A stretch of 64,000 nucleotides of DNA from Heterodontus francisci (taxonomy: Eukaryota), in assembly GCF_036365525.1 (NCBI RefSeq), contig NC_090417.1, positions 3,024,832-3,088,831 of the forward strand, in the 5' to 3' direction. Below the pieces are notes generated by a model that was not told the DNA's origin, did not search any database, and saw only the letters and a list, made by a program, of their open reading frames with translations. The translations under genes were made by a program, and so were the position numbers. This document shows, piece after piece, positions 7,460 to 60,654 of the stretch (the first letter of the stretch is position 1; every line of letters starts with the position of its first letter).

Positions 7460-8069
7460 TCAATTGTCCCATCGCAGATGTGTATTAAATCTGTCCCGGC
7501 CTCCAGAATTTAGCTTCCCCCCTCTGTTACTCCTTCCACCGCATGACAGCTGATAATTCTGCCAAGGGGACTCGGGCTGACTGCTCCACCGTGAGGACTC
7601 GGGCTGACTGCTCCACCGTGAGGACTCGGGCTGACTGCTCCACCGTGAGGACTCGGGCTGACTGCTCCACCGTGAGGACTCGGGCTGACTGCTCCACCGT
7701 GAGGACTCGGGCTGACTGCTCCACCGTGAGGACTCGGGCTGACTGCTCCACCGTGAGGACTCGGGCTGACTGCTCCACCGTGAGGACTCGGGCTGACTGC
7801 TCCACCGTGAGGACTCGGGCTGACTGCTCCACCGTGAGGACTCGGGCTGACTGCTCCTCCAGGATGATCCCTGTCTTCCATAATCCAGGTTGGAATATGC
7901 CTCCGTATGACCATTGTGCAGCACAGTTTGATGCACAGCACCAGACCCAAACCTTTGTCTCCCGGGATGCTGCACAGGCTGGTAGGGATAAGTAGACTGT
8001 TTAGGTGGGCAGGTGGATTGGCTGAACTCACGAAAGCCATTAGGTGTGCGACATTTTCCCTGGTACGGT
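7460..8069 (-). CDS. DUSP11: DUSP11 last coding exon (exon 9), low-complexity C-terminus with (SSRWSSQPE)n repeat
   Basis: Acceptor ttctcttacag at 8070-8080. Phase matches exon 8 (AG|A CCG TAC CAG GGA...). Open for 203 codons to TGA at 7460-7462. Minus-strand AATAAA downstream at ~6048 and ~5979. Confidence 0.75.
7569..7862. repeat. 27-bp coding minisatellite, 11 copies
   Basis: gactcgggctgactgctccaccgtgag starts at 7569 and repeats every 27 bp to 7839. Confidence 0.97.
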
Positions 8070-10849
8070 CTGTAAGAGAACAGTCAATGCATCAGTTACA
8101 GGTTTACAAATCTAGATCTATCCCTGAACTTCATATTCTCAGCAGAATACTGCACAACCTGTATCTTGACATGACATTAAAGGCAGCACAGAAAAAAACC
8201 AGTGTCACTCCATTTTACACCTCCCAACTAACTGCACAAAGCCAAGGGCAGTCACTGTTATTATATAGACAAATATTCTGTACCAGAAAGATCCAAAAAC
8301 CACACAGATTTAAATAACTACTTCATCTGTGTTAAGTGTTGGTTGAGGAATAAATATTGGCCAGGACACCAGGGAGAACTTCCATGCTCTTCTTGCAATA
8401 GTGTTTTGACAGTGCAGCGCTCCCTCTGTACCGTCCCTCCAACAGTGCAGCACTGACATGTCAGTCCAGATTATGAGCTCAAATTCTATAGTGAATATTC
8501 ACCTCATTGCTCGCCACTGTACCAAGTTTGTTCATGAATCAAGTATGGGGCTCCCTTTCCCCCGAAGATTCGGCCCCACCCAGGTTAGCACTCCTTGGCT
8601 TTGAACATTTGGCAGCTGAGATCTGTTAGCTTATTGAATCACAGCTGTGGCTGACTCTGGCGTCATCCACAATTCAGTGATCAGCACCTTCCAGTCAGCA
8701 GTCGCTGGAATACTGTAGCACTCACTGCCATCAGCAAGTTTAACACAGACTGGGGATCAAACATGGAATGGCTTGGTCTCTGTGGCACAGTTACTGGCTG
8801 CCTTAACCAGCTGAGCCACCAGGAGAGCTGCACAACACCAGATAACTAAAAACATCTGCTTTAATTGGGGCGGCTGTGGGATTGGTTCTGGAACAGAATA
8901 TCTGGGAGTCGAAGGGAATAAAGTGTAATTACACAACTGAAGCAACAATCCTTCCTCACAACTAAGGAACATAACGTACTAAAGCTACAATGAACAGATG
9001 GATACACAGGAGGCTGTTGCATCCCTGTGAGAGGTTACGCACTCTATCTCAGATCTAACTTGCTCCCCGCAGCTGGCACAATCACTCCTGGGCACACAAA
9101 CACTACACAATAGGAGGCACATGGGACAAAGACAGACAGCTGAGGGAGCCCAGACAGCGTGCCAGTCACACCACAGAGTGAAAGCTGCAGCCAAAGAGAG
9201 AAACTTGGCACCCAGTACCATTGTGCAGCTGAACGACTGTCAAACCAGCCACTCAAGTCAAACTAAACTGGATCACAAATGTACCTCATTTACCCGAATG
9301 GTCCCAGTGCACTTTATTCAACACACTGGAGTAAAACTACAGAAAATTACATTGTACAATGAAGTTACAACACAGATACAGGCCATTCGGCCCAGCCAGT
9401 CCATACTGGTGTAATTCTGCCACACGCGCGGTGTCCCCATTTTCCTTCAACCATTTCTCTATCCTATTCTTAGACGTGGTCTCTGCTTCAATCACTAATG
9501 CATTCCATAGTCTTGCAACTCTGTGCAAAAAGATTTCCTCCTCCTCTCTGTCCTAAACCTCATACATTGAATCTTATATCAGCGTCCCTTCATTCTGGAC
9601 CCCTTGACCACAGGGAACTGTTTCCATCCCTCCCTTCATCACCCTGTTAAATCTCCCCTTTTCTAACAAAGGCTGCCCCAATTGGTTGAGTCTTGCATGA
9701 TATTTTGTACTTCCTTCTACCGGCAGCATCCCTGTGAACTCTCTCCAACTCTCTCCGGCAGCCATCCATCATCTCGTGAGGTGATGGTTTGCACCTTGGT
9801 TGTCAACTCTGTGTTCAGCAAAACTGAAGTGTCCTCTCCAGGCCATGAGTCTGGGCAAAATTTATGGAGACCCTGCGCTGCTCAAACATCGGTTGGGTCC
9901 AAAGGACTGAAGAGCACGATGTTTGGCACTGGCTTGGTTGCAGAAGTTGTCAGAAAGATGACCTAGCTGGGCCTCAGTCTGCCGCCGCATTTGGGCTCCA
10001 CTCCAGATTTTATTTGTCAGGGTTTACCCCCTTAACCTTCGTCTCTCCCAAAGTATCCAGAAGGCAGCGGAGCTATTCGCCCATGGCTGGGAGTTTGGTT
10101 CATGAGTGCCAGGGTGCGTCCACACCCTGATGGGACAGTGCACTGCATGTCTGGGGGCCAAACCTCCTCCGAGGTCCTTCGAAACTTTAGCCTGAGGCCA
10201 AGTGGAGGCACAGCAGAGGACTTGCTGATGGAGAGGCTGAAACCTTGGCTCTCCTTTTTATACTGCTGCTAGCCAGCCAAGTAGGTTGAACATGAGAATC
10301 ACACTAACACACAAAAAGCCAACTGTAATGTCCTGTACCATTTGCCTTAAATCCCAGTGCTCTACTATTTTTTTTTTTCTTTAAATGGTTGTGTCCAGTT
10401 GAGGTATTGATTTTATGAATCTGCACACAAACCTCTCACACTTGGCGTCTAACACTCCTTCAAACTCCCACAACCCTGGCCCCGCTTGTACTTCACCGCA
10501 GTGTGAGCCCACATTGATCCCACAACACACAGCCCGAGTTTGCACAATCAGGAATAAAGACAGAAAATGCTCAACAGGTCGGGCAGTATCAATGGAGAGA
10601 GAAAAAGGTAGATGATCCTTCATCAGAACTTGGAGTGCTTTGAGATGCAACAGATCTTAAGCAAGGCAGGGCAAGGGAGGGGAAAGGGGAGAAAAGAACA
10701 AAAGGGAAGTCTGCGATGGGGAAAGAGCAGGAGAGGTTAAATGACAAAGGGGATGATAGTGCATAGTAAGTGAGTCCAACAACAAAAAATAAACTCAAAC
10801 AAAATCAGGAATTGGTTCTCAGTCCCACTGGACAGTGTGAGGAGATCAT

Positions 10850-11570
10850 GCAGAATCACAGAATTGTTACAGAAGAGGAGGCCATTCGGCCCATCGTGTC
10901 TGCAGCAGCTCTCCGAATGAGCAATTCACCTAGTGCCACTCCCCTACCTTCTCCCTGTAACCCTGCACATTCTTCTTTTTCAGATAGCAATCTAATTCTC
11001 TTCGGAATGCTTCAGTTGAACCTGCCTCCACCACACTCTCAGGCAGTGTATTCCAGATCAGAACCACTCACTGTGAAAAAGCTTTTCCTCACATAACTTT
11101 TGCTTCTCTTACCAAATACTTTAAATCTGTCACTGACCCGAAACGTTAACTCTGCTTCTCTTTCCACAGATGCTGCCAGACCTGCTGAGTGGTTCCAGCA
11201 TTTCTTGTTTTTATTATTACTTTAAATCTGTGCCCTCTCGTTCTTGATCCTTTCACAAGTGGGAACAGTTTCTCCCTATCTACTCTGTCCAGACCCCTCA
11301 TGATTTTGAATACTTCTATCAAATCATCTCTCGGCCTTCTCTTCTCCAAGGAAAACAGTCTTAACTTCTCCAATCTATCTTCATAACTGAAATTCCTCAT
11401 CCCTGGAACCATTCTCATTAATCTTTTCTGCACTCTCTCCAATACCCTCACATCTTTCCTAAAGTGCGGCGCCCAGAACTGGACGCAATACTCCAGCTGA
11501 GGCCGTACTAGTGTCTTATACAAGTTCAACATAACTTCCTTGCCCTTGTACTCAATGCCCCTATTAATAC
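10850..11570 (-). mobile_element. CR1 LINE 3' fragment containing a nested 87-bp Penelope-like tail
   Basis: LYKTLVRPQLEYCVQFWAPH...RTRGHRFK. Insert 11131-11217 is flanked by duplicated tactttaaatctgt. Confidence 0.85.
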
Positions 11571-11636
11571 ATGACAAGACATCACCTACAAGCAATCAGG
11601 TTAATAAGACTGCACAGATTTCACACTGTTACACAC

Positions 11637-11726
11637 CTGGCTCGCTGCGTGAACACGGCCTGCTGACCAAATTGTTCCTTCTGTCTTGTAACTGAGCAAC
11701 GAGCCGGTACATCAATTCCTTTATTG
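11637..11726 (-). CDS. DUSP11: DUSP11 exon 8
   Basis: ttccgcag|C AAT AAA GGA ATT GAT...GCC AG|gtgtgt; 90 nt; phase-compatible with exons 7 and 9; poorly conserved sequence. Confidence 0.65.
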
Positions 11727-12070
11727 CTGCGGAACAGAAAAAGATTAAACACAGAAGGAAGTTGAGCCGACGTATCTTCTCAACGTGAAACACAGCCAGT
11801 GTAACAAGCTCAGAGGAACTTGTTAAAAGGCAAGAATTTTAAATCCACAAACCTCTCCCTCATGTATTTTCCCATTCCGGGATCAATTTTCACTCTGAAT
11901 ATTCTGAATAGAAACTCAATCAGGAAAAACTGAGTGAAAGGGAGCGATGTCTGAAAATCAGACTCCTACTCTACCTTACACAGCCTGTATATAGCTGATG
12001 GGCTAAGAACAGTCTGAATGCAAGTTAATCAGCTTTCTGTTGGCTAGGATCCTGAATCAGTTGATCTTAC

Positions 12071-12146
12071 CTTCTGCGCGGCCCCTGCAGCAGATCTTGT
12101 ATGTAATTTTGCCTTTCTATTGGGTATCCTCGGGATTTATTGAACA
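12071..12146 (-). CDS. DUSP11: DUSP11 exon 7
   Basis: (L)FNKSRGYPIERQNYIQDLLQGPRR; AG/GT junctions; 76 nt. Confidence 0.9.
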
Positions 12147-12238
12147 CTTGAGAGAAAGAATCAGGGGTTAAAAGATTTTAAAATGACAAAATCAGTGCAA
12201 CAGTCACACAAGACAACTGGTGAAAACCAAGAGCTTAC

Positions 12239-12285
12239 AATTTATTGCTTCACGAGGCTCCATCCCATCCACATCGATCAGGTAC
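12239..12285 (-). CDS. DUSP11: DUSP11 exon 6
   Basis: YLIDVDGMEPREAIN; tttcag| acceptor, |gtaagc donor; 47 nt. Confidence 0.9.
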
Positions 12286-12340
12286 CTGAAACAAACCAGA
12301 GACAGGAATCAGCAAGGCAGCAGTCAGCAGGATCACTGTC

Positions 12341-12760
12341 AGCCGTGGCTCAGACGGTAACACTCTTGTCTGTGTCAGGAGGTTGTGGGTTCAAATCCCA
12401 CTCCAGAGGCTTGAGATCAAAATCCAGGCTGACACTCCTTGTGTAGTACTGAGGGAGTGCTGCATTGTCGGAGGTGCCATCTTTCAGATGGGATGTTAAA
12501 CCGAGGCCCCATCTGCCCTCTCATGTGGGCATAAAAGATCCCATGAAACTATTTCAAAGAAGAGCAGGGGAGTTCTCCCCTGTGTCCTAGACAATATTTA
12601 TCCCTCAACCAACATCACAAAAACAGATTATCTGGTTATTTTCACACTGCTGCTTGTGGGATCTTGCTGTGCACAAACTGACTGCCGTGTTTCCTACAAC
12701 AGTGGCTACACTTCATTGGCTGTAAAGCACCTCGGAATGTCCTGAGGTTGTGAAACATAC
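12341..12760 (+). mobile_element. Deu-domain tRNA-derived SINE (SacSINE1-like)
   Basis: A-box-like tggctcagacgg, B box ggttcaaatcc, core gatgttaaaccgaggccccatctgccctctc. Related copies at ~8330, 14160, 33900, 49680, 51815, 58890. Confidence 0.75.
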
Positions 12761-13946
12761 ATTATTCAGTCAGCAGTCAAAGCCCAGTGTGCAAGACTCC
12801 TTTTTCACCCAATCACTAGCACAGCCAGTGCTGTGACTGGGTTTTTGAGATCACACACTAATATATCTGAGCAGAAAAACACACAGAAACCAACTGATGT
12901 TTACATGTCTCATCAGCTTCATTTAACACTCCTAACTCATTCCCTCCAAGTGCTGCCAGCTCTATTGAGAGCCCCATCCCCACTCATCATCATTGGTTGC
13001 TCTCTCCACACACAGCTCTGGTTTGGAACAACACAATGTGGAACTGCACAGCTGGAGGGTTGATAGTTCTGGTAGACAGAATGCATACAACACAGTGACA
13101 CTGCAAGAAGTGGAAGCTAACCCAGTGTTGCCAAACACGACACATTGGGGGAGAACGAGTAAGACAACCTTTGATCACAAACATATTTAAACAGACGTTA
13201 CAGTGAAATGTTTACTGTGTGAACAGTACATTATAGTTGGTCCCAACAAAGACTCTGCACAAACAGCAGTGTCAGTCCACACAAGTCATCTCCTGGATTA
13301 AACTAACCGAGGCGTTATCCGACAGGAGTCTCAGCCTTTCCTGCACAACTTCCCGGTTCATTCAGGAATCCTTCAGAGACACAAAATTTGAATTCTGATC
13401 TCGCTCGATCAACCAGTTTACCTGCACAGAACAGGAAGGTCTCGGATACAATCCCTGGCCTGGGCTGAGTTAGCGACACAGCCAGAACGGGTGTGGGAAA
13501 AGGGGCGAAGGAGGAGAAAATCAGAGAAGGATCCATGACTTTCCAGTAAGTGTGTATCAGAAATCAGCACGAGATTCAGATCAGATACACTTGCATCACA
13601 TCTGGAGGTGGATATAGTCGGATCCTTTAGGAGAGCAGGGAAGGTAATGGATGAGTTTCAAGTAAGAAAACAGACAGTGGTAGTAACCATCTGAATGAAC
13701 TGTGTGTCAATAAGCTCCCACGGCACCACCGATCTCTATGGATCTTGATGATTGAAGTGGGGTGCAGCGGCTACTGTCACTGTTACAGGCACTGAGCATC
13801 TTCATCGACATCACCCCCCACACACAAAAATAGCAGCAGCTTTCTCCTGGGAAATCCCATTCAAAGCAGCAGGGCGAGAAAACTGAGCTGCTCAACCACT
13901 TTCACATTACTCTTTGACACAGTTATTAACACACCAGACAACGTAC

Positions 13947-14007
13947 CTGCAAATTAGATAGCCAGTTCTGTTAACTCCGTGAGTGCAGTGAACTCCAACC
14001 AGTTTAT
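13947..14007 (-). CDS. DUSP11: DUSP11 exon 5, catalytic P-loop
   Basis: DKLVGVHCTHGVNRTGYLICR contains the HCTHGxNRT (CX5R) signature of PIR1/RNA triphosphatases; 61 nt. Confidence 0.95.
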
Positions 14008-14494
14008 CTACAAGTAGATGCACACAGAGAAAGCTTAAAAACACAGCGTACTCAGGTTTGACACCACCCCCCCACCCCCAACATAACGCCCTGCATCTTA
14101 CAGCATATGCCTGTGACGTGCCAGCAAACAGGCAGACTCTCCGACACATGGGCACTCAGTGTCACAGTACAGACTCTGCTCTGAAACAGAATGTTGGAGA
14201 GGACCAAGGGAGTGCCACACCGTCTGAGGGGCAGGACCGAGGGAGTGCCGCACCGTTGAAAGCGCCTCAGAGGTCCTGGCTGTCCTCTCAGATGGACGCA
14301 AGACATTTATTCGAAGAAGAGCTGGTGAGTTTTCCCTGGTACCCTGGCCAACATTTATCCTTCAACCAACGCACTTAAAAAAAAATCTCTTCATTCTCAC
14401 ATTGCTGTTTGTGGGATGTTACTGTGTAAATATTGGTTGGCATGTCTCCCTACATTACAACAGTGACTAGACGTCAAAAAAGTGCTTTATTAAG

Positions 14495-14960
14495 TGGGCG
14501 GCGCAGTGGTTAGCACCGCAGCCTCACAGCTCCAGCGACCCGTGTTCAATTCTGGGTACTGCCTGTGTGGAGTTTGCAAGTTCTCCCTGTGTCTGCGTGG
14601 GTTTTCTCTGGGTGCTCCGGTTTCCTCCCACAGCCAAAAGACTTGCAGGTTGATAGGTAAATTGGCCATTATAAATTGTCACTAGTAAAGGTAGGTGGTA
14701 GGGAAATATCGGGACAGGTGAGGATGTGGTAGGAATATGGGATTAGTGTTCTTTCTTTTGGGCCTCCTTATCTCGAGAGACAATGGATACGCGCCTGGAG
14801 GTGGTCAGTGGTTTGTGAAGCAGCGCCTGGAGTGGCTATAAAGGCCACCTATAAAGGGATTAGTGTAGGATTAGTATAAATGGGTGGTTAATGGTTGGCA
14901 CAGACCCGGTGGGCCGAAGGGCCTGTTTCAGTGCTGTATCTCTAAATCTAAAAAAAATCT
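14495..14960 (+). mobile_element. HE1-like V-SINE containing a nested antisense RTE-type fragment
   Basis: tRNA-derived head ggcgcagtggttagcac and V-domain gtgtggagtttgcaagttctccctgtgtctgcgtggg; insert at 14750-14855. Confidence 0.85.
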
Positions 14961-15029
14961 AAATTAAGCTCGACAAAACTTTGGGATGTCCTGAAAAGTG
15001 TTCTGCTTTCATCCCAGGGCCAAGCTTAC

Positions 15030-15153
15030 CATTGTCCACATTATCCAACAGGAATGTTCTGACAGCTTGTTTGAAAGTTAAAATGTTTTTCGCATTTGGC
15101 ACTTCATGTCCAGCAGTGAAAATCTTCTCAAAGAGCAAACCCTCCGGCAACTC
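15030..15153 (-). CDS. DUSP11: DUSP11 exon 4
   Basis: ELPEGLLFEKIFTAGHEVPNAKNILTFKQAVRTFLLDNVDN; 124 nt; AG/GT junctions. Confidence 0.92.
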
Positions 15154-15987
15154 CTAGAACCACAGAGAATACATTGAAAATTAACTGGTACGCCAACAGA
15201 GTTTCATGTCTGTGGAGTAAAGCAAGTGCAGATTCAGCAGTAACAAGCGATCCACCCTTGTACGCTGTCCGATGCTGTGCATTCACCCGGCCTCTACCCG
15301 CTGTTCTTCACCCCAGCTCCCTCCACACACCACCCATGTTTGGAATGACTCTACGCAAGGTGCTGTTTGCACTACAAACTTCACACAGCCACCATTACAC
15401 TTCACTGCAATCCTGCTCACAGCACTGGCAGTCTCAATGCTCACAGACTCTCTAATCGAAACTCTCCTCCGCTGCTCGTCCCCCCCAAATAAAATAATAA
15501 TTCCCCACTACAGTCTTACACACCACCTGGCTGGTGAAAGTGAGAACTACATTTCTGCTGGAGATAATAACCAATGATGCCGCTTAGTCTAATGACCCAC
15601 AACTTGGCTGAAACAAAGTTAAAATCCCCATCACACTCAATCCCCCGTTTATTATTTCTGGGGACGATTTCTAAATAATACATTTTTTTGAATGGGGAGA
15701 GAATCGGAAAAAAAATTAAATGGAATAAATAATGATATTGACCAAACTGTTTTCAAAAATCAAAACATGACAAATTTAGAAATAAGAAACTAGATTAAAG
15801 TCAAGAACTGTCATTCCTACACCAGCGGAAAGGTGAAACTATAACCCAAATAAGCAGCTGGCCTGAGATATTAGTCAGCCAAAGCCCTCAATCGCAACAA
15901 CTGGTACTAGTTTCAACAGTGAACAGAAATTCATAATAGTGTCCATCACCATCAGCAAAAGGTGAAAGCAGACACTTCTGTTGTTAC

Positions 15988-16119
15988 CTTAGGGTCGTAA
16001 TAACGCTTTGTAAAGGTAAGGTCAATGATTTTCCCCAATTCCTCTCTCTGCTCCTTAATCTGTCTCAGAAGGTCAGTCGGTGAGAAGACTTTGTTGGGTG
16101 GCAGGTGGCTTTCGAAGAC
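15988..16119 (-). CDS. DUSP11: DUSP11 exon 3
   Basis: VFESHLPPNKVFSPTDLLRQIKEQREELGKIIDLTFTKRYYDPK; 132 nt. Confidence 0.92.
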
Positions 16120-16149
16120 CTGAAACAAGCAAGCACACTTCAAGGCCAT

Positions 16150-16790
16150 GGAGATACAAGAACGGAAGGAGACCATATAGTCTCTCCAGCCAGTTCTGCC
16201 GTTCAGTGAGATCACAGCTGATCTGTGATGTACCTCCATATACCCGCCTTTTCCCCCTAATCCCTTGATATCCTAAGCTAAACAAAAATCTTTCAATCTC
16301 AGATTTAAAATAAACAGTTGATCGAGCATCACGTGTCATTTGTGGGAGAGAGTTTCAAACTTCTACCACCCTTTGTGTGTAGAGCTGTTTCCTAATTTCA
16401 CTCCTGAAAGGGCTGGCTCGAATATTTAGACTACGCTTCCAGTCCTAGACCCTGTAACCAACAGTCATTTCCCTCTATTTCCCCTATTTGTTCCCGATAA
16501 TATCTTGAAAAACGTCAATCAAACCACCCCATAACCTTCTAAATTCCAGGGAACACAACTCTAATCTGCATAATCTCTCCTCCTAATTTAACTCTTGGGA
16601 GTCCAGGTTCTGGTAAATCTATGATACACACCCTCCAAGGCCAATATGTCCGTACTAAGGTGTGGTGCCCAGAACTGCTCACAGTTCTCCAGGTGTGGTC
16701 TAACTAGGGCTTTGTATAGCTGAAGCAGGACTTCTATCCCATGTATTCTAGTCCTCTAGATATAAAGGCCAACATTCCATTAGCCTATTT
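16150..16790 (-). mobile_element. CR1 LINE 3' fragment
   Basis: Reverse complement of a CR1 RT C-terminus and 3' UTR. Confidence 0.75.
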
Positions 16791-16794
16791 AATC

Positions 16795-17640
16795 AACTGA
16801 AGCAGTCCGTGCAGAAATGCAGCAAGACCTGGACAATATCCAGGCTTGGGCTGATAAGTGGCAAGTAACATTTGCGCCACACAAGTGCCAGGCAATGACC
16901 ATCTCCACCGAGAGAGAATCTAACCATCTCCCCTTGACATTCAATGGCATTACCATCGCTGAATCCCCCACTATCAACATCCTGGGGGTGACCATTGACC
17001 AGAAACAAAACTGGAGCAGCCGTATAAATACTGTGGCTACGAGAGCAGGTCAGAGACTAGGAATCCTGCGGGGAGTAACTCACCTCCTGACTCCCCAAAG
17101 CCTGTTCACCATCTACAAGGCACAAGTCAGGACTGTGATGGAATACTCTCCACTTGCCCGGATGGGTGCAGCTCCAACTCAAGAAGCTTGACACCATGTA
17201 GAACAAGCAGCCCACTTGACTGGCACACCATGCACAAACATTCACACCTTCCACCACCGACGCACAGTGGCAGCAGTGTGTACCATCTACAAGATGCACT
17301 GCAGCAACGCACCGAGGCTCCTTAGACAGCACCTTCCAAACCCGTGACCTCTACCACCTCGAAGGACAAGAGTAGCAGATGCATGGGAACATCACCACCT
17401 GCAAGTTCCCGTCCAAGTCACACACCATCCTGACTTGGAACTACATCGCTGTGCCTTCACTGTCGCTGGGTCATAATCCTGGAACTCCTTTCCTATCAGC
17501 ACTGTGGGTATACCTACCTCACATGGACTGCAGCGGTTCAAGAAGACAGCTCATCACCACCTTCTCAAGGACAATTAGGGATGGGCAATAAATCCTGGCA
17601 TAGCCAGTGATACCCACATCCCATGAATGAATAAAAAAAA
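16795..17640 (+). mobile_element. Shark CR1/L2-group LINE 3' fragment
   Basis: QQDLDNIQAWADKWQVTFAPHKC...YKAQVRTVMEYSPLA; tail tgaatgaataaaaaaa. Confidence 0.85.
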
Positions 17641-17655
17641 AATCTTTCTTTATAC

Positions 17656-17731
17656 CTTCTTCAGTGGGACTTTAAATGCGATGAACCTGGTCCCCAGCAG
17701 CCTCCGTCCCACAGCAGAATATTCCTGCCAT
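17656..17731 (-). CDS. DUSP11: DUSP11 exon 2
   Basis: WQEYSAVGRRLLGTRFIAFKVPLKK; 76 nt; AG/GT junctions. Confidence 0.92.
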
Positions 17732-17989
17732 CTGCAGAGAGAAAGAGGGAAATATCAGACACACCAGCCGGAGACACAGCGTGGGGACCCAGGGCGATCT
17801 GGTGAGAGGTAAATCGGCTTGAAGTGATCCAAAAGCGTGCGGCATGATTCTGTGCAAATCAGGATGGGAAACACACCAGTGTCACAACCTGGATCAAAGG
17901 TCGGGAATGGGAATCACTACAACAAAGGAGGGAGGAAAGTAGGCTGGCCATGTCCTATAATATGGAATGAAGTGGTGGCAAGTGGCAGG

Positions 17990-18200
17990 AGCAAGTACCT
18001 AGTGCCCTCTGGCAATGGGAAAACACGAGGTGGCCATCCACAGAAACTACAAAGAACATTTGTTTCCAAGACAGTTTATCAACAACCTTTCTTTCCAAGA
18101 ACAATCCCACAGTGGAACAAGCTGGCACAGCAAACAATCTTGAAATTTACAAAACCCATCTTTAGATACTATACATCTATAAGGTTTACATGACCATGAC
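17990..18200 (+). mobile_element. Short 3' remnant of a divergent non-LTR element
   Basis: KTRGGHPQKL...FFPRTIPQWNKL resembles LINE ORF2 C-termini. Confidence 0.5.
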
Positions 18201-18366
18201 TACTATATCACAGGGTCATGTCTGGTTGAACCAAATTCCTAATTTAAACGGAATAGGGATGTTAGTTAGACTGTGACGCCAACACAACCGAAGCAGAAGA
18301 GTTTGGGGAGGGGCGACCCCAGGCTTACTCGCCCTGCCCGGGGAGGAAGGAATCAACAAGCCTCAC

Positions 18367-18392
18367 CTGTCCGGGATCTTGTTCTTACTCAT
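18367..18392 (-). CDS. DUSP11: DUSP11 exon 1 (coding part)
   Basis: gccATGagt Kozak context; MSKNKIPDR; donor AG|GTGAGG at 18366; joins exon 2 to give IPDRW. Confidence 0.85.
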
Positions 18393-18965
18393 GGCTCCGC
18401 TGGCCTCCCTCTTACTGCCCGCCACCACCACCACCAGGCCCAAACCCCGGCACCAGCGCCCGGCTGCAGCCATTGCGCAGGCGCACCAGCCACATCCCGG
18501 CGAGGGAAAAGAAAAAAAGGACAGGAGCGCCATCTTTGTGCGGGGCGGACAGGCCGTCGCCACACTGGGAGGGGCGGGAAAAGGGGGGCGCCATCTTTGT
18601 GCGGGGCAGCCAGGTGGGCCGTCGCCACACTGGGAGGGGCGGGAAAAGGGGGGCGCCATCTTTGTGCGGGGCCGCCAGGTGGGCCGTCGCCACACTGGGA
18701 GGGGCGGTTAAAGGGAGTGTGTCAGTACGTGCGGGGCACAGGCGTGGCCGCCATTCTGAGGGTGGCAAGAGCCGGCGCCATTTCTGTGAGGGGTAAAGTA
18801 ACAGCCGCCGTATCTGTGGGAGGCAAATGCAATCCTCCTCACTTGATAAAGCCCATCGGAATTATATATATTTGCAGGTTTTCAATCGTTCCTTTCCGAT
18901 AAATCACGCGCGCTTTTGCAGCACGTGGCGATTTTGTTTACAGCAGGAAGCCGGGGTGAAGGGTC
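18393..18965. promoter_or_regulatory. CpG island; DUSP11 promoter and probable shared BRF2 promoter
   Basis: NRF1 motif tgcgcaggcgca 18474-18485; YY1-type cgccatcttt at 18528, 18589, 18654; repeated ggggcggg GC boxes; 61-65 bp tandem units. Confidence 0.75.
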
Positions 18966-19089
18966 AGTGACACCATTCCTATTTCTCCAGCCAGAGCCTG
19001 AAAAACTCCTCATGGAAATGGAGGGACCGGGGAAGAGCAAGTGGCTATTCAAATTCAGCATTTCTTAGTGTGTCACTGTTTCGAAAGTG

Positions 19090-22000
19090 TCCTGGGCATG
19101 TGTTAAATATTTACAGGGGGTCCTCGGGAGTGTGTCAGTATTTACAGGGGGTCCTCGGGAGTGTGTCAGTATTTACAGGGGGTCTCCGGGGAGCGTGTCA
19201 GTATTTACAGGGGTTCTCCGGGAGTGTGTCGGTATTTACAGGGGGTCTCCGGGAGCGTGTCAGTATTTACAGGGGGTCTCCGGGGAGCGTGTCAGTATTT
19301 ACAGGGGTTCTCCGGGAGTGTGTCGGTATTTACTGGGGTTCTCCGGGAGCGTGTCAGTATTTACAGGGGGTCTCCGGGGAGCGTGTCAGTATTTACAGGG
19401 GTTCTCCGGGAGTGTGTCGGTATTTACAGGGGGTCTCCGGGGAGTGTGTCAGTATTTACAGGGGTTCTCCGGGAGTGTGTCAGTATTTACAGGGGTTCTC
19501 CGGGAGTGTGTCGGTATTTACAGGGGTTCTCCGGGAGTGTGTCGGTATTTACAGGGGGTCTCCGGGGAGTGTGTCGGTATTTACTGGGGTTCTCCGGGAG
19601 TGTGTCAGTATTTACTGGGGTTCTCCGGGAGTGTGTCAGTATTTACAGGGGGTCTCCGGGAGTGTGTCGGTATTTACTGGGGGTCTCCGGGAGTGTGTCA
19701 GTATTTACAGGGGGTCTCCGGGAGTGTGTCAGTATTTACTGGGGTTCTCTGGGAGTGTGTCAGTATTTACAGGGGTTCTCCGGGAGTGTGTCGGTATTTA
19801 CAGGGGGTCTCTGGGAGTGTGTCAGTATTTACAGGGGGTCTCCGGGAGTGTGTCAGTATTTACTGGGGTTCTCCGGGAGTGTGTCAGTATTTACAGGGGG
19901 TCCTCGGGAGTGTGTCGGTATTTACTGGGGGTCTCCGGGAGTGTGTCAGTATTTACTGGGGTTCTCCGGGAGTGTGTCAGTATTTACAGGCGTTCTCCTG
20001 GAGTGTGTCAGTATTTACAGGGGTTCTCCGGGAGTGTGTCGGTATTTACAGGGGTTCTCCGGGAGTGTGTCAGTATTTACTGGGGGTCTCCGGGAGTGTG
20101 TCAGTATTTACAGGGGGTCCTCGGGAGTGTGTCGGTATTTACAGGGGGTCCTCGGGAGTGTGTCGGTATTTACTGGGGTCTCCGGGAGTGTGTCAGTATT
20201 TACAGGGGGTCCCCGGGAGTGTGTCGGTATTTACAGGGGGTCCTCGGGAGTGTGTCGGTATTTACTGGGGGTCTCCAGGAGTGTGTCAGTATTTACAGGG
20301 GTTCTCCGGGAGTGTGTCAGTATTTACAGGGGTTCTCCGGGAGTGTGTCAGTATTTACAGGGGTTCTCCGGGAGTGTGTCGGTATTTACTGGGGTTCTCC
20401 GGGAGTGTGTCAGTATTTACTGGGGTTCTCCGGGAGTGTGTCAGTATTTACTGGGGGTCTCCGGGAGTGTGTCGGTATTTACTGGGGGTCTCCGGGAGTG
20501 TGTCAGTATTTACTGGGGTTCTCCGGGAGTGTGTCAGTATTTACTGGGGTTCTCCGGGAGTGTGTCAGTATTTACTGGGGTTCTCCGGGAGTGTGTCAGT
20601 ATTTCCAGGGGGTCCTCGGGAGTGTGTCGGTATTTACAGGGGTTCTCCGGGAGTGTGTCGGTATTTACAGGGGGTCCCCGGGAGTGTGTCAGTATTTGCA
20701 GGGGGTCCCCGGGAGTGTGTCAGTATTTGCAGGGGGTCCTCGGGATTGTGTCAGTATTTACAGGGGGTCCTCGGGAGTGTGTCAGTATTTACAGGGGGTC
20801 TCCGGGAGTGTGTCAGTATTTACAGGGGGTCCTCGGGAGTGTGTCAGTATTTACAGGGGTTCTCCGGGAGTGTGTCAGTATTTACAGGGGGTCTCCGGGA
20901 GTGTGTCAGTATTTACAGGGGGTCTCCGGGAGTGTGTCAGTATTTACAGGGGGTCTCCGGGAGTGTGTCAGTATTTACTGGGGTTCTCCGGGAGTGTGTC
21001 AGTATTTACAGGGGGTCTCCGGGAGTGTGTCGGTATTTACTGGGGTTCTCCGGGAGTGTGTCGGTATTTACAGGGGGTCCTCGGGAGTGTGTCAGTATTT
21101 ACAGGGAGTCTCCGGGAGTGTGTCAGTATTTACAGGGGGTCCTCGGGAGTGTGTCAGTATTTACAGGGGGTCTCCGGGAGTGTGTCGGTATTTACAGGGG
21201 GTCCTCGGGATTGTGTCGGTATTTACAGGGGGTCCTCGGGATTGTGTCAGTATTTACTGGGGTTCTCCGGGAGTGTGTCAGTATTTACAGGGGGTCTCCG
21301 GGAGTATGTCGGTATTTACAGGGGGTCTCCGGGAGTGTGTCAGTATTTACAGGGGGTCTCCGGGAGTGTGTCTGTATTTACTGGGGTTCTCCGGGAGTGT
21401 GTCGGTATTTACAGGGAGTCTCCGGGAGTGTGTCAGTATTTACAGGGGTTCTCCGGGAGTGTGTCACTATTTACAGGGGGTCTCCGGGAGTGTGTCAGTA
21501 TTTACTGGGGTTCTCCGGGAGTGTGTCGGTATTTACAGGGGGTCCTCGGGAGTGTGTCGGTATTTACAGGGGGTCCTCGGGATTGTGTCAGTATTTACTG
21601 GGGGTCTCTGGGAGTGTGTCAGTATTTACTGGGGTTTTCCGGGAGTGTGTCGGTATTTACAGGGGGTCTCCGGGAGTGTGTCAGTATTTACTGGGGTTCT
21701 CCGGGAGTGTGTCGGTATTTACAGGGGGTCCTCGGGAGTGTGTCGGTATTTACAGGGGGTCCTCGGGATTGTGTCAGTATTTACTGGGGGTCTCTGGGAG
21801 TGTGTCAGTATTTACTGGGGTTTTCCGGGAGTGTGTCAGTATTTACAGGTGTTCTCCGGGAGTGTGTCAGTATTTACAGGGGGTCCTCGGGAGTGTGTCG
21901 GTATTTACAGGGGGTCCTCGGGAGTGTGTCGGTATTTACTGGGGTTCTCCGGGAGTGTGTCAGTATTTACTGGGGGTCTCCGGGAGTGTGTCAGTATTTA

Positions 22001-25000
22001 CTGGGGGTCTCCGGGAGTGTGTCAGTATTTACAGGGGTTCTCCGGGAGTGTGTCGGTATTTACTGGGGTTCTCCTGGAGTGTGTCAGTATTTACAGGGGG
22101 TCTCCGGGAGTGTGTCAGTATTTACTGGGGTTCTCCGGGAGTGTGTCGGTATTTACTGGGGTTCTCCGGGAGTGTGTCAGTATTTACAGGGGGTCCTCGG
22201 GAGTGTGTCAGTATTTACTGGGGGTCTCCGGGAGTGTGTCAGTATTTACAGGGGTTCTCCGGGAGTGTGTCGGTATTTACTGGGGTTCTCCGGGAGTGTG
22301 TCAGTATTTACAGGGGGTCCTCGGGATTGTGTCAGTATTTACTGGGGTTCTCCGGGAGTGTGTCGGTATTTACTGGGGTTCTCCGGGAGTGTGTCAGTAT
22401 TTACAGGGGGTCTCCGGGAGTGTGTCAGTATTTACTGGGGTTCTCCGGGAGTGTGTCAGTATTTACAGGGGGTCTCCGGGAGTGTGTCGGTATTTACAGG
22501 GGGTCCTCGGGAGTGTGTCGGTATTTACAGGGGGTCCTCGGGAGTGTGTCGGTATTTACAGGGGGTCCTCGGGATTGTGTCCGTATTTACTGGGGGTCTC
22601 TGGGAGTGTGTCAGTATTTACTGGGGTTCTCCGGGAGTGTGTCAGTATTTACTGGGGTTCTCCGGGAGTGTGTCAGTATTTACTGGGGTTCTCCGGGAGT
22701 GTGTCAGTATTTACTGGGGGTCCTCGGGAGTGTGTCGGTATTTACAGGGGTTCTCCGGGAGTGTGTCGGTATTTACAGGGGGTCTCCGGGAGTGTGTCAG
22801 TATTTACAGGGGTTCTCCGGGAGTGTGTCGGTATTTACTGGGGTTTTCCGGGAGTGTGTCAGTATTTACAGGGGGTCCTCGGGAGTGTGTCAGTATTTAC
22901 AGGGGTTCTCCGGGAGTGTGTCGGTATTTACTGGGGTTTTCCGGGAGTGTGTCAGTATTTACAGGGGGTCCTCGGGAGTGTGTCAGTATTTACAGGGGTT
23001 CTCCGGGAGTGTGTCACTATTTACAGGGGGTCTCCGGGAGTGTGTCAGTATTTACAGGGGTTCTCCGGGAGTGTGTCACTATTTGCAGGGGGTCTCCGTG
23101 AGTGTGTCACTATTTACAGGGGGTCTCCGGGAGTGTGTCACTATTTACAGGGGTTCTCCGGGAGTGTGTCGGTATTTACAGGTGTTCTCCGGGAGTGTGT
23201 CGGTATTTACAGGGGGTCCTCGGGATTGTGTCAGTATTTACTGGGGTTCTCCGGGAGTGTGTCGGTATTTACAGGGGGTTCTCCGGGAGTGTGTCAGTAT
23301 TTACAGGGGGTCTCCGGGAGTGTGTCACTATTTACAGGGGTTCTCCGGGAGTGTGTCGGTATTTACAGGTGTTCTCCGGGAGTGTGTCGGTATTTACAGG
23401 GGGTCCTCGGGATTGTGTCAGTATTTACTGGGGTTCTCCGGGAGTGTGTCGGTATTTACAGGGGGTTCTCCGGGAGTGTGTCAGTATTTACAGGGGTTCT
23501 CCGGGAGTGTGTCGGTATTTACTGGGGTTTTCCGGGAGTGTGTCGGTATTTACAGGGGGTCCTCGGGAGTGTGTCAGTATTTACAGGGGTTCTCCGGGAG
23601 TGTGTCGGTATTTACTGGGGTTTTCCGGGAGTGTGTCAGTATTTACAGGGGGTCCTCGGGAGTGTGTCAGTATTTACAGGGGTTCTCCGGGAGTGTGTCA
23701 GTATTTACAGGGGTTCTCCGGGAGTGTGTCAGTATTTACAGGGGTTCTCCGGGAGTGTGTCAGTATTTACAGGGGTTCTCCGGGAGTGTGTCACTATTTA
23801 CAGGGGGTCTCCGGGAGTGTGTCACTATTTACAGGGGGTCTCCGGGAGTGTGTCACTATTTACAGGGGGTCTCCGGGAGTGTGTCACTATTTACAGGGGT
23901 TCTCCGGGAGTGTGTCGGTATTTACAGGTGTTCTCCGGGAGTGTGTCGGTATTTACAGGGGGTCCTCGGGATTGTGTCAGTATTTACAGGGGGTTCTCCG
24001 GGAGTGTGTCGGTATTTACAGGGGGTTCTCCGGGAGTGTGTCGGTATTTACAGGGGTTCTCCGGGAGTGTGTCGGTATTTACTGGGGTTTTCCGGGAGTG
24101 TGTCAGTATTTACAGGGGGTCCTCGGGAGTGTGTCAGTATTTACAGGGGTTCTCCGGGAGTGTGTCACTATTTACAGGGGGTCTCCGGGAGTGTGTCAGT
24201 ATTTACAGGGGTTCTCCGGGAGTGTGTCACTATTTACAGGGGGTCTCCGGGAGTGTGTCGGTATTTACAGGGGGTCTCCGGGAGTGTGTCGGTATTTACA
24301 GGGGTTCTCCGGGAGTGTGTCGGTATTTACAGGGGTTCTCCGGGAGTGTGTCGGTATTTACAGGGGTTCTCCGGGAATGTGTCGGTATTTACAGGGGTTC
24401 TCCGGGAGTGTGTCGGTATTTACAGGGGTTCTCCGGGAGTGTGTCGGTATTTACAGGGGTTCTCCGGGAGTGTGTCGGTATTTACAGGGGTTCTCCGGGA
24501 GTGTGTCGGTATTTACTGGGGTTCTCCGGGAGTGTGTCGGTATTTACAGGGGGTCCTCGGGAGTGTGTCAGTATTTACTGGGGGTCTCCGGGAGTGTGTC
24601 AGTATTTACAGGGGTTCTCCGGGAGTGTGTCGGTATTTACTGGGGTTCTCCGGGAGTGTGTCAGTATTTACAGGGGGTCCTCGGGATTGTGTCAGTATTT
24701 ACTGGGGTTCTCCGGGAGTGTGTCGGTATTTACTGGGGTTCTCCGGGAGTGTGTCAGTATTTACAGGGGGTCTCCGGGAGTGTGTCGGTATTTACTGGGG
24801 TTCTCCGGGAGTGTGTCGGTATTTACAGGGGGTCTCCGGGAGTGTGTCGGTATTTACAGGGGGTCCTCGGGAGTGTGTCGGTATTTACAGGGGGTCCTCG
24901 GGATTGTGTCAGTATTTACTGGGGGTCTCTGGGAGTGTGTCAGTATTTACTGGGGTTCTCCGGGAGTGTGTCAGTATTTACTGGGGTTCTCCGGGAGTGT

Positions 25001-28000
25001 GTCAGTATTTACTGGGGTTCTCCGGGAGTGTGTCAGTATTTACTGGGGGTCCTCGGGAGTGTGTCGGTATTTACAGGGGTTCTCCGGGAGTGTGTCGGTA
25101 TTTACAGGGGGTCTCCGGGAGTGTGTCAGTATTTACAGGGGTTCTCCGGGAGTGTGTCGGTATTTACTGGGGTTTTCCGGGAGTGTGTCAGTATTTACAG
25201 GGGGTCCTCGGGAGTGTGTCAGTATTTACAGGGGTTCTCCGGGAGTGTGTCGGTATTTACTGGGGTTTTCCGGGAGTGTGTCAGTATTTACAGGGGGTCC
25301 TCGGGAGTGTGTCAGTATTTACAGGGGTTCTCCGGGAGTGTGTCACTATTTACAGGGGGTCTCCGGGAGTGTGTCAGTATTTACAGGGGTTCTCCGGGAG
25401 TGTGTCACTATTTACAGGGGGTCTCCGGGAGTGTGTCACTATTTACAGGGGGTCTCCGGGAGTGTGTCACTATTTACAGGGGTTCTCCGGGAGTGTGTCG
25501 GTATTTACAGGTGTTCTCCGGGAGTGTGTCGGTATTTACAGGGGGTCCTCGGGATTGTGTCAGTATTTACTGGGGTTCTCCGGGAGTGTGTCGGTATTTA
25601 CAGGGGGTTCTCCGGGAGTGTGTCAGTATTTACAGGGGTTCTCCGGGAGTGTGTCGGTATTTACTGGGGTTTTCCGGGAGTGTGTCAGTATTTACAGGGG
25701 GTCCTCGGGAGTGTGTCAGTATTTACAGGGGTTCTCCGGGAGTGTGTCACTATTTACAGGGGGTCTCCGGGAGTGTGTCAGTATTTACAGGGGTTCTCCG
25801 GGAGTGTGTCACTATTTACAGGGGGTCTCCGGGAGTGTGTCGGTATTTACAGGGGGTCTCCGGGAGTGTGTCGGTATTTACAGGGGGTCTCCGGGAGTGT
25901 GTCGGTATTTACAGGGGTTCTCCGAGAGTGTGTCGGTATTTACAGGGGTTCTCCGGGAGTGTGTCGGTATTTACAGGGGTTCTCCGGGAGTGTGTCGGTA
26001 TTTACAGGGGTTCTCCGGGAGTGTGTCGGTATTTACAGGGGTTCTCCGGGAGTGTGTCGGTATTTACAGGGGTTCTCCGGGAGTGTGTCGGTATTTACAG
26101 GGGTTCTCCGGGAGTGTGTCGGTATTTACAGGGAGTCTCCGGGAGTGTGTCGGTATTTACAGGGAGTCTCCGGGAGTGTGTCGGTATTTACAGGGGTTCT
26201 CCGGGAGTGTGTCGGTATTTACTGGGGGTCTCCGGGAGTGTGTCGGTATTTACAGGGGTTCTCCGGGAGTGTGTCGGTATTTACAGGGGTTCTCCGGGAG
26301 TGTGTCGGTATTTACAGGGGTTCTCCGGGAGTGTGTCGGTATTTACAGCGGGTCTCCGGGAGTGTGTCGGTATTTACAGGGGTTCTCCGGGAGTGTGTCG
26401 GTATTTACTGGGGTTCTCCGGGAGTGTGTCGGTATTTACTGGGGTTCTCCGGGAGTGTGTCGGTATTTACAGGGGTTCTCCGGGAGTGTGTCGGTATTTA
26501 CAGGGGTTCTCCGGGAGTGTGTCGGTATTTACAGGGGTTCTCCGGGAGTGTGTCGGTATTTACAGGGGTTCTCCGGGAGTGTGTCGGTATTTACAGGGGT
26601 TCTCCGGGAGTGTGTCGGTATTTACAGGGGGTCTCCGGGAGTGTGTCAGTATTTACAGGGGTTCTCCGGGAGTGTGTCAGTATTTACAGGGGTTCTCCGG
26701 GAGTCTGTCAGTATTTACAGGGGTTCTCCGGGAGTCTGTCAGTATTTACAGGGGTTCTCCGGGAGTGTGTCAGTATTTACAGGGGTTCTCCGGGAGTCTG
26801 TCAGTATTTACAGGGGTTCTCCGGGAGTGTGTCAGTATTTACAGGGGTTCTCCGGGAGTCTGTCAGTATTTACAGGGGTTCTCCGGGAGTGTGTCAGTAT
26901 TTACAGGGGTTCTCCGGGAGTCTGTCAGTATTTACAGGGATTCTCCGGGAGTGTGTCAGTATTTACTGGGGGTCCTCGGGTTTGTGTCAGTATTTACTGG
27001 GGGTCCTCGGGATTGTGTCAGTATTTACAGGGGTTCTCCGGGAGTGTGTCAGTATTTACAGGGGGTCCCCGGGAGTGTGTCAGTATTTACAGGGGGTCCC
27101 CGGGAGTGTGTCAGTATTTACAGGGGGTCTCCGGGAGTGTGTCAGTATTTACAGGGGTTCTCCGGGAGTGTGTCACTATTTACTGGGGGTCTCCGGGAGT
27201 GTGTCACTATTTACTGGGGGTCCTCGGGAGTGTGTCAGTATTTACAGGGGGTCCTCGGGAGTGTGTCAGTATTTACAGGGGTCCCGGGGAGTGTGTCAGT
27301 ATTTACAGGGGGTCCTCGGGAGTGTGTCAGTATTTACAGGGGTCCCGGGAGTGTGTCACTATTTACAGGGTGTCCTCGGGATTATGTCAGTATTTACTGG
27401 GGGTCTCCGGGAGTGTGTCAGTATTTACAGCGGGTCTCCGGGAGTGTGTCGGTATTTACAGGGGTTCTCCGGGAGTGTGTCGGTATTTACTGGGGTTCTC
27501 CGGGAGTGTGTCGGTATTTACTGGGGTTCTCCGGGAGTGTGTCGGGATTTACAGGGGTTCTCCGGGAGTGTGTCGGTATTTACAGGGGTTCTCCGGGAGT
27601 GTGTCGGTATTTACAGGGGTTCTCCGGGAGTGTGTCGGTATTTACAGGGGTTCTCCGGGAGTGTGTCGGTATTTACAGGGGTTCTCCGGGAGTGTGTCAG
27701 TATTTACAGGGGGTCTCCGGGAGTGTGTCAGTATTTACAGGGGTTCTCCGGGAGTGTGTCAGTATTTACAGGGGTTCTCCGGGAGTCTGTCAGTATTTAC
27801 AGGGGTTCTCCGGGAGTCTGTCAGTATTTACAGGGGTTCTCCGGGAGTGTGTCAGTATTTACAGGGGTTCTCCGGGAGTGTGTCAGTATTTACAGGGGTT
27901 CTCCGGGAGTGTGTCAGTATTTACAGGGGTTCTCCGGGAGTCTGTCAGTATTTACAGGGGTTCTCCGGGAGTGTGTCAGTATTTACAGGGGTTCTCCGGG

Positions 28001-29320
28001 AGTCTGTCAGTATTTACAGGGATTCTCCGGGAGTGTGTCAGTATTTACTGGGGGTCCTCGGGATTGTGTCAGTATTTACTGGGGGTCCTCGGGATTGTGT
28101 CAGTATTTACAGGGGTTCTCCGGGAGTGTGTCAGTATTTACAGGGGGTCTCCGGGAGTGTGTCAGTATTTACAGGGGGTCCCCGGGAGTGTGTCAGTATT
28201 TACAGGGGGTCTCCGGGAGTGTGTCAGTATTTACAGGGGTTCTCCGGGAGTGTGTCACTATTTACTGGGGGTCTCCGGGAGTGTGTCACTATTTACTGGG
28301 GGTCCTCGGGAGTGTGTCAGTATTTACAGGGGGTCCTCGGGAGTGTGTCAGTATTTACAGGGGTCCCGGGGAGTGTGTCAGTATTTACAGGGGGTCCTCG
28401 GGAGTGTGTCAGTATTTACAGGGGTCCCGGGAGTGTGTCACTATTTACAGGGGGTCCTCGGGATTATGTCAGTATTTACTGGGGGTCTCCGGGAGTGTGT
28501 CAGTATTTACAGGGGTTCTCCGGGAGTGTGTCACTATTTGCAGGGGGTCTCCGGGAGTGTGTCAGTATTTACAGGGGGTCCTCGGGAGTGTGTCAGTATT
28601 TACAGGGGGTCCTCGGGAGTGTGTCACTATTTACAGGGGGTCCTCGGGATTGTGTCAGTATTTACTGGGGGTCTCCGGGAGTGTGTCAGTATTTACTGGG
28701 GGTCCTCGGGAGTGTGTCAGTATTTACAGGGGGTCCTCGGGAGTGTGTCAGTATTTACAGGGGGTCCTCGGGAGTGTGTCAGTATTTACAGGGGTCCCGG
28801 GAGTGTGTCAGTATTTACAGGGGGTCCTCGGGAGTGTGTCAGTATTTACAGGGGTCCTCGGGAGTGTGTCAGTATTTACAGGGGTCCTCGGGAGTGTGTC
28901 AGTATTTACAAGGGGTCCTCGGGAGTGTCAGTATTTACAGTGGTCCCGGGAATGTGTCAGTATTTACAGAGGGTCTCCGGGAGTGTGTCAGTATTTACAG
29001 GGGGTCCTCAGGAGTTTGTCTGTATTTACAGGGGGTCTATGGGAGTGTGTCAGTCTCTCCAGGGGTTTGGGAGGGTGTCAGTATCTCCAGGGGTTTGGGA
29101 GGGTGTCAGTATTTACAGGGGTTTGGGAGGGTGTCAGTATTTACAGGGGTATGGGAGGGTGTCAGTCTCTACAGGGGTTTGGGAGGGTGTCAGTCTCTAC
29201 AGGGGTTTGGGAGGGTGTCAGTCTCTACAGGGGTTTGGGAGGGTGTCAGTATTTACAGGGGTTTGGGAGGGTGTCAGTATCTCCAGGGGTTTGAGAGAGT
29301 GTCAGTATCTCCAGGGTGTT
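19090..29320. repeat. ~10.2 kb tandem array of a 31-bp unit (roughly 325 copies), ending in a 28-bp variant
   Basis: Unit gggagtgtgtc(a/g)gtatttac(a/t)gggg(tt/gt)ctcc. 28-bp variant gggagggtgtcagtctctacaggggttt from ~29050. Confidence 0.98.
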
Positions 29321-29436
29321 ACGGGTATGACTTGATGGGAAAGAATCAAACTCACGATAACTTTATGGGTGCACTGATTTTTCTGTCACTGCCTTTGTTT
29401 TGTGTAGAGAGGAAGTCAGTCTCTGGGCTTGTGTAA

Positions 29437-29593
29437 ATGATGTCTGGACAGCACAAGTGCCCCGAGTGTGGCTCCAGCGCGGTGGAAGAAGACTCGCATT
29501 ACAGCCAAAACCATCTCGTGTGCACTGAATGCGGCTTCCTGCTAACTGAAGGACTACTCACAACAACTCGCTCCGAGGAGACGTTCTTCCAAG
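29437..29593 (+). CDS. BRF2: BRF2 (TFIIIB 50 kDa subunit) first coding exon, zinc ribbon
   Basis: CPECGSSAVEEDSHYSQNHLVCTECG zinc ribbon; upstream acceptor tttgtgtag at 29407; donor G|gtacaa. Confidence 0.93.
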
Positions 29594-30289
29594 GTACAAG
29601 CCTTGTTCAGCACCTAATGACTCCCAGAAATGACTGTGTTCTCTGAGCAAGGTACACGATGCAGGGTGTGTGCTGACCTCGGGTATCACAGCTCACGTAA
29701 CTGCCCCTGTAATAAGGAGAGGAAAGTTTTGCTCCTGTTTCTGCTCCTGATCACCTATCATGGCTGAAAAAGTTTGTCTCTACACTGGACTAGCCTCCTG
29801 ACACTCCGTTTCAATCATGAAATCATTCAACAGTCTCACAACACTCTTGTTAAAAAAAACCTCCCACTTTCTGTCCTAAATATCTTGCATTTTATATCTA
29901 TGTCCTCTTGTTCCTGATGCCTCAAATCTCTGGAATCATTGTCTCTCCACTCTACTATTCCTTCATCATGTTAAGCACCTCTGTTGAATCACCTCACCAT
30001 CTCAATTGTTCAAGCCTTTCCTCATATTTGTATTTCCTCATACTGGGCACATCCTAGTGAATTTACGCTGATCCCTCTCCATTGCCTTATCCTGCTATCT
30101 TGCAGAACTGAAAACTGCACACAGTCCTCCAGATGTGGTTGGAGTGAGGTTTTATATAAATTCCCCTTATTCTGTATCTCTTCCTCGAAACCCTTTTCAA
30201 TGGACTCATCCACTTTTACTGAGATACTTTTAATGTCTTGGGAACTGAACATCTGAATCCCTTTGCTCTTCCACATTAAGTGACCTTCC

Positions 30290-31920: not shown

Positions 31921-32171
31921 GCTAGCTATTCTCCCTCTATTCTTCCCTTTTGTTCTTCTTCCACCCCCTCCCCCGCTTGCTGAAAGCCTATTACATTTCT
32001 AACCCTTGCCAGTTCTGATGAAAGGTCAACTATGTTAAAGAAATCTTCAAGCCTGTTTGTGAAGAAGACACTGAGACTCATGCTTTGGTGTCGATCATTT
32101 ATTGCTTGTCACAGAGCTTACTTCTGCTCTTCAAACAACACCACCAGCCAGTGCTGGCTGGTCTATATTAC

Positions 32172-32206
<35 letters not shown>

Positions 32207-32391
32207 CGACTACAATTAACTAATTAACACCCAACACCTGTTCTCCCTATTATCTTGAACTACCAGATATCTGTCATCCATTATCAGAACTTCAGACCCT
32301 AATAATCAACCTGAAACGTTAACTCTGCTTTTCTCTCCACAGATGCCGCCTGACCTGCTGAGTATTTCCAGCATGTTCTGTTTTTGTTCCA

Positions 32392-33413: not shown

Positions 33414-33473
33414 CAGTGAGATACACTGAGAGCACAGCAGAGGTGAAAAAGCCTTGTCGCAATCAGATACAAG
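33414..33473 (+). CDS. BRF2: BRF2 exon 2
   Basis: 60 nt; AVRYTESTAEVKKPCRNQIQ; ttccgcag| acceptor (NAGNAG), |gtaaga donor. Confidence 0.85.

Positions 33474-52902: not shown

Positions 52903-53097
<195 letters not shown>

Positions 53098-60426: not shown

Positions 60427-60654
<228 letters not shown>

Follow-up and report, generated by a model that had tools for sequence, protein, structure and literature searches.

In the shark Heterodontus francisci, the genome of which spans 6.0 Gb, the genes DUSP11 and BRF2 lie head to head, and spliced RNA places the first exons of both in one CpG island. The two genes are contained in a 64,000-nucleotide stretch of contig NC_090417.1 (hereafter, the window), where the gene order is STAMBP-like (-, left of the window), DUSP11 (-), BRF2 (+), and an FHIP/RAI16-family gene (-). 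An initial annotation of this DNA held that DUSP11 and BRF2 diverge from one CpG island and interpreted the arrangement as co-regulation of a maker and a detoxifier of RNAs with 5'-triphosphate ends. The observation is confirmed by intact models on opposite strands, with both first exons in the island, and the structural prediction is shown by the spliced RNA, whereas the interpretation is partly supported. The pair is well supported as a new, apparently undescribed example of the common class of bidirectional promoters; no report of a DUSP11-BRF2 gene pair was found in the open-access literature, where supplementary lists of head-to-head genes could bear on novelty. The analysis adds this pair to those known and establishes how the 5' part of the shark BRF2 gene is organised.

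Spliced RNA on both sides of one CpG island

Both genes are intact, adjacent, and on opposite strands, facing each other 5' to 5', as indicated by the gene models and by the splice dinucleotides in RNA. The DUSP11 gene (7460..18474, minus strand) has nine GT-AG coding exons (18473-18367, 17731-17656, 16119-15988, 15153-15030, 14007-13947, 12285-12239, 12146-12071, 11726-11637, and 8069-7460), which, when joined, are an exact copy of the named 440-residue RefSeq protein (P0264). The catalytic HCTHGVNR loop conforms to the HCxxxxxR signature and is intact, a DSPc domain is present, and exon 3, compared with PDB, has human DUSP11 as its best structural relative (E=2.5e-12), features by which we identify the product as the predicted DUSP11/PIR1 RNA 5'-phosphatase. 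When the genome was searched for a second DUSP11, the matches were swamped by the tail repeat of this gene, and a stricter first look was used, so that a paralog may have been missed.

BRF2 has four coding exons (29437-38019, plus strand) encoding 470 residues in a frame without an internal stop; exons 2-5 occupy 29408-29593, 33414-33473, 34444-34765, and 37146-38019, with coding from the ATG at 29437 and the conserved ATG at 29440. The protein matches human BRF2 structures in PDB at both ends (E=4e-62 and 6.5e-15), as well as the Pfam families PF08271, PF00382, and PF21886. Judging from its TFIIB-type Zn ribbon, cyclin repeats with PF21886, and LPPC motif, it can be assigned to BRF2 (TFIIIB50), and it has one match in its own genome.

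Six sequencing runs, none of them recorded as RNA, contained island sequence, and four of the six were mapped to 17620-19100: X1 and X4, from one sample of organism A, and X5 and X6, from one sample of organism B in a second study, A and B being two related sharks. All four skip 17732-18366 with CT..AC ends, that is, across the joint of DUSP11 exons 1 and 2, which identifies the runs as spliced RNA. On the BRF2 side, the contig piece ending at 18877 continues, again in each of the four runs, into 29408 onward, a string that is unique in the window, so that exon 1 of BRF2 is non-coding and lies in the island (18748/18763..18877, plus strand, donor 18877|GT), the 5' end given here being a minimum extent. 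The initial annotation had foreseen such an exon further left, together with a splice acceptor before the ATG exon, and both are found, the AG ending at 29407, 29 nucleotides before the ATG. The donors it proposed, at about 18793 and 18963, are used in none of the four runs. The in-frame TAA that it saw before the ATG is present, at 29434, but is not conserved: organism B, with 6-7 differences over about 130 exon-1 letters, has TGG in its place, and several other sharks have W-K-M there, so that the TAA is a local feature. Separately, the leader of Mustelus BRF2 isoform X1 ends at a motif resembling the 18793 site, and a minor isoform there is possible.

On the DUSP11 side, the RNA contigs extend to 18474 in X4 and to 18448 in X1. 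As far as they reach, exon 1 (18367..18474, minus strand) holds two ATGs, at 18473, the RefSeq start, and at 18392, where MSKNK begins; the latter had been taken for the start of DUSP11, an assignment superseded by the upstream ATG. The BRF2-side contigs of all four runs and the DUSP11 contig of X4 end within the island, with no further letters. Given contig ends at 18474 and 18748-18763, no more than 273-288 bp separates the 5' ends of the two genes, which is below the 1 kb that delimits bidirectional promoters, these ends being minimum extents rather than true starts.

The region at 18380-18960 (581 bp) has a GC content of 0.62 and an observed-to-expected CpG ratio (o/e) of 0.79, compared with 0.46 and 0.34 outside the satellite, and by composition is a CpG island that spans both 5' ends. 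The earlier claim that this is the only island between the two genes holds for non-satellite DNA but not for the minisatellite in BRF2 intron 1, which passes the island thresholds as well (o/e 0.69, GC 0.54). This intron (18878..29407, plus strand; 10,530 nt, GT-AG) consists to 97% of 329 copies of a 31-bp unit (19108..29289), the location of the approximately 10-kb array within the intron following from the 18877-29408 joint. The 31-bp repeat belongs to a dispersed genome-wide family, the consensus unit recurring in 129 exact copies on at least nine contigs.

The probable bidirectional promoter core (18475..18747) comprises the 273 bp between the 5'-most RNA pieces (288 bp in run X4 alone). 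A palindromic NRF1-type site (18475..18484), the sole one in the window, adjoins the upstream DUSP11 ATG and is followed by three tandem copies of a 65-bp unit (18527..18715), with YY1 cores at 18528, 18589, and 18654 and four GC boxes, at 18543, 18572, 18637, and 18702. The YY1 cores, which read AAGATGGCG on the DUSP11 strand, are the only three in the window, all inside the island; being copies of one tandem unit, they count as one event. A degenerate fourth copy of the unit falls within BRF2 exon 1. With two of the 65-bp units removed, dinucleotide shuffles gave P values of about 0.015 for NRF1, 0.02 for YY1, and 0.04 for two GC boxes, an enrichment that is real but modest. The patterns for ETS/GABPA, CCAAT (NF-Y), and ZNF143 had no match in the island in this pattern scan.

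Vertebrate bidirectional CpG-island promoters have starts less than 1 kb apart and are enriched for GABPA, NRF1, NF-Y, YY1, and ZNF143 motifs (PMC1487180, PMC3082894). The shark island matches this motif profile through NRF1 and YY1, and resembles the class also in that its genes diverge from 5' ends no more than about 290 bp apart, in its GC boxes, and in its housekeeping-type partners. It departs from typical members in the lack of an ETS/GABPA or ZNF143 pattern match, in the tandem triplication of the YY1/GC unit, and in a first BRF2 intron made up of a 10-kb minisatellite.

The pairing in other vertebrates

Gene order in relatives was assessed by proxy, from RefSeq accession numbers, and sequence records of identical length were treated as one chromosome; accession numbering is not strictly positional and gives no orientation. 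The comparison covered 12 sharks and rays; GenBank draft rows, and species with a record for BRF2 or DUSP11 but not for both, were left out. In all 12 elasmobranchs, DUSP11 and BRF2 are on equally long records. Taking the smallest accession gap between the two genes in each species, it is 1 in Narcine, Scyliorhinus torazame, and Heptranchias; three further species have gaps of 2-4, another four have gaps of 8-34, and the remaining two have 252 and 429. Given that several of these chromosomes exceed 140 Mb, accession nearness is unlikely unless the genes adjoin, and in sharks and rays generally DUSP11 and BRF2 are likely to be neighbours. The gaps in Hemiscyllium (252), Chiloscyllium plagiosum (429), and Polyodon (313) are uninformative on adjacency, and the Latimeria accessions, which come from different annotation rounds, carry no adjacency information. 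The rows left out include C. punctatum GCC20762/GCC35281, partial models that fall on two separate scaffolds of the draft, of 230 kb and 1.15 Mb, and draft rows of S. torazame on tiny contigs; in the newer C. punctatum assembly, the genes are 8 accession numbers apart.

Equally long records carry both genes also in coelacanth, paddlefish, Alosa alosa, and A. sapidissima, so that, together with the 12 elasmobranchs, the physical opportunity for the pairing is ancient. The search of protein records recovered no chimaera BRF2 record, the one candidate (P0275) proving to be from a skate, and hence a gain in elasmobranchs is not distinguishable from a loss in bony fish.

Two sequence comparisons suggest, indirectly, that the promoter itself is old. 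The leader of Mustelus BRF2 isoform X1 matches the YY1 unit of the island (E=5e-4 when compared with the island and 0.045 with the whole window) and is the only convincing match among the 11 leaders compared, and the ACAM peptide, which is read through the NRF1 site, recurs before the matching DUSP11 ATG in the Hemiscyllium, Hypanus, and Hemitrygon models.

Compared with human DUSP11 (PDB 4NYH, 4MBB, 4JMJ), the shark protein is orthologous in sequence and has an intact catalytic loop, and its gene keeps STAMBP as a neighbour, as we take to be the case in human. The shark gene is unlike the human one in being head to head with BRF2 and tandem to STAMBP, and in encoding about 11 copies of a 9-residue tail repeat; its activity is predicted. 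Shark BRF2 shares with human BRF2 (TFIIIB 50 kDa; PDB 4ROC, 5N9G, 8ITY) the Zn ribbon, two cyclin repeats, LPPC motif, and C-terminal acidic segment. However, its first exon is non-coding and separate, lying 10.5 kb upstream of the one with the ATG, where the human first exon is presumably coding, and the gene is flanked by DUSP11 and the FHIP-family gene, not by ADGRA2 and RAB11FIP1, which we assume to be the human neighbours. A RAB11FIP gene of H. francisci is 1.55 Mb away on the contig of the window (C47), and a CGI-121 (TPRKB) gene is on another contig (C27).

A probable shared housekeeping promoter and its alternatives

We consider it probable that the DUSP11-BRF2 gap is an ordinary shared housekeeping bidirectional promoter, the pairing having arisen on an old common chromosome and then become locked in. 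NRF1, YY1, and Sp-type factors would keep one nucleosome-free region open and load RNA polymerase II both ways, the two mRNAs would rise and fall loosely together, like those of most head-to-head pairs, and both genes would depend on the same stretch of about 300 bp, such that a break between them would leave one gene without a promoter. Given that chondrichthyan chromosomes change slowly (PMC11406177), this dependence would account for the retention of the pair in sharks and rays, with no need for a selected maker/cleaner circuit. The gap of 273-288 bp supports an ordinary bidirectional promoter because it falls in the commonest human distance class, 62% of 1,262 head-to-head pairs being 1-400 bp apart (PMC1487180), and both NRF1 and YY1 belong to the motifs enriched at promoters of this kind (PMC3082894). 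In a human-mouse comparison, bidirectional pairs were co-expressed, and no functional link was found to lie behind their conservation (PMC3403606); among human head-to-head pairs, 62.3% are significantly correlated and about 38% are not (PMC1487180). Several points nevertheless weigh against this reading. Adjacency seems to hold in 10 of the 12 elasmobranchs, where the two genes are within 34 accession numbers; Y RNA and RMRP combine type 3 promoters with being DUSP11 substrates (PMC10498592, PMC7706711, PMC12058148); head-to-head partners lean statistically toward common function (PMC1487180); and the RNA contigs carry no information on true starts, strand, or level and lose rarer forms. Contig depth cannot rank genes and was not used as a measure of co-expression.

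The same adjacency and substrate overlap, together with the structurally shared promoter in spliced RNA and the indirect signs of an old NRF1 site (Hemiscyllium, Hypanus, Hemitrygon) and YY1 unit (Mustelus), speak for a selected coupling. One promoter, kept since the shark/ray ancestor, would tie the output of type 3 RNA polymerase III transcripts to 5'-triphosphate removal, matching BRF2-dependent RNAs, such as Y RNA and RMRP, with clean-up by DUSP11, the human form of which (PIR1) is an RNA 5'-triphosphatase that limits RIG-I sensing (PMC7706711); this safeguard against RIG-I self-activation would have dissolved in teleosts and mammals. Such coupling is a reasonable idea, but we regard it as unlikely. 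The overlap between BRF2 products and DUSP11 substrates appears to be partial, and all the substrate data are from human or mouse, none from sharks. Alu, vault, and 7SL are not classic type 3 genes. DUSP11 acts on the RNAs of all three as well (PMC10498592, PMC7706711), U6 and 7SK, the major BRF2 products, are methyl-capped by MePCE (PMC10498592), and in the one inflammation model tested, type 2 transcripts were the drivers, type 3 transcripts being outside that test (PMC13535238). About 10% of human genes are in head-to-head arrangement (PMC3082894), from which we roughly infer that some attractive pairings arise by chance; by a similarly rough estimate, about 1,000 such pairs per genome would include a few plausible partners. 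Furthermore, Alosa alosa does not have the genes next to each other, their locus tags being G00163100 and G00169000, and in human, we assume, they are on different chromosomes, 2 and 8. Should the coupling be true, the locus would be a natural test of whether RNA polymerase III output must match 5'-triphosphate removal for invisibility to RIG-I, which the promoter core of about 300 bp makes cheap to perform; in mammals, BRF2-dependent transcripts were outside the alarm-signal testing in the above model (PMC13535238).

The layout of the island could also be read as two one-way core promoters under independent regulation, NRF1 serving DUSP11 and the YY1/GC units serving BRF2. The NRF1 site adjoins the 5' end of DUSP11, with the YY1/GC units placed between that site and BRF2 exon 1 and the degenerate fourth unit inside this exon, and the share of uncorrelated human pairs given above (PMC1487180) is compatible with independence. 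Less than 300 bp apart, however, the two starts would share one open-chromatin region. Moreover, by the typical orientation of YY1 relative to its gene, cores reading AAGATGGCG on the strand of DUSP11 are not cleanly attributable to BRF2, and on balance we find this division of the island improbable. It is highly improbable that the main BRF2 start is elsewhere, near 29.3 kb or in the minisatellite, with the island exon representing a minor isoform. The mapping was confined to 17620-19100, the contigs lose rarer forms, and RefSeq lists several BRF2 5' isoforms for other sharks, all of which leave some room for such a start, an outcome that the initial annotation had named as a refutation. The contigs show otherwise, the island exon being spliced to exon 2 in all four runs, and 29290-29437 has a CpG o/e of 0.33 and none of the scanned promoter motifs.

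Other features of the two genes and the window

The spliced BRF2 5' untranslated region (18827-18877 + 29408-29440) contains an ATG at 18827 that opens a 27-codon frame, the TGA of which overlaps both start codons (ATGATG, 29437-29442). This upstream frame could act as a damper of BRF2 translation, and its overlap with the start codons looks local to H. francisci. At BRF2 exon 3, there is a tandem CAGCAG acceptor (33411-33416, plus strand), and the Stegostoma isoforms X1 and X2 differ by the corresponding residue.

The DUSP11 models of sharks, rays, chimaera, coelacanth, paddlefish, and shad have an Arg-rich, acid-poor extension before the MSKNK-type start, which corresponds here to 18393-18473 (minus strand); 23 of the 122 DUSP11 records have a leader of at least 30 residues. 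The extension resembles a mitochondrial presequence, a candidate role that we rejected given that it does not separate from translations of the GC-rich island. The last DUSP11 exon contains a perfect 27-bp coding tandem repeat (7568-7857, minus strand; 10.7 copies of a 9-residue unit), and related but divergent repeats are found in the DUSP11 tails of other sharks.

A second CpG island, at 3500-4250, carries CCAAT boxes, GC boxes, and a 38-bp repeat, and a donor on the minus strand is found near 3737. This island is likely to provide the STAMBP-like gene, the coding exons of which are in the left-flanking stretch (L006), with its promoter and a non-coding first exon. The FHIP/RAI16-family gene (50000-60500, minus strand) is tail to tail with BRF2, and its first coding exon is probably in the other flanking stretch (L007, 5370-5471), near a CpG island. 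Further minisatellites are present at 61096-63456 (34-bp unit), 52104-52387 (35-bp), and 832-1132 (33-bp), and many reverse-transcriptase fragments, which we take to be of the LINE (long interspersed nuclear element) type, are scattered across the window.

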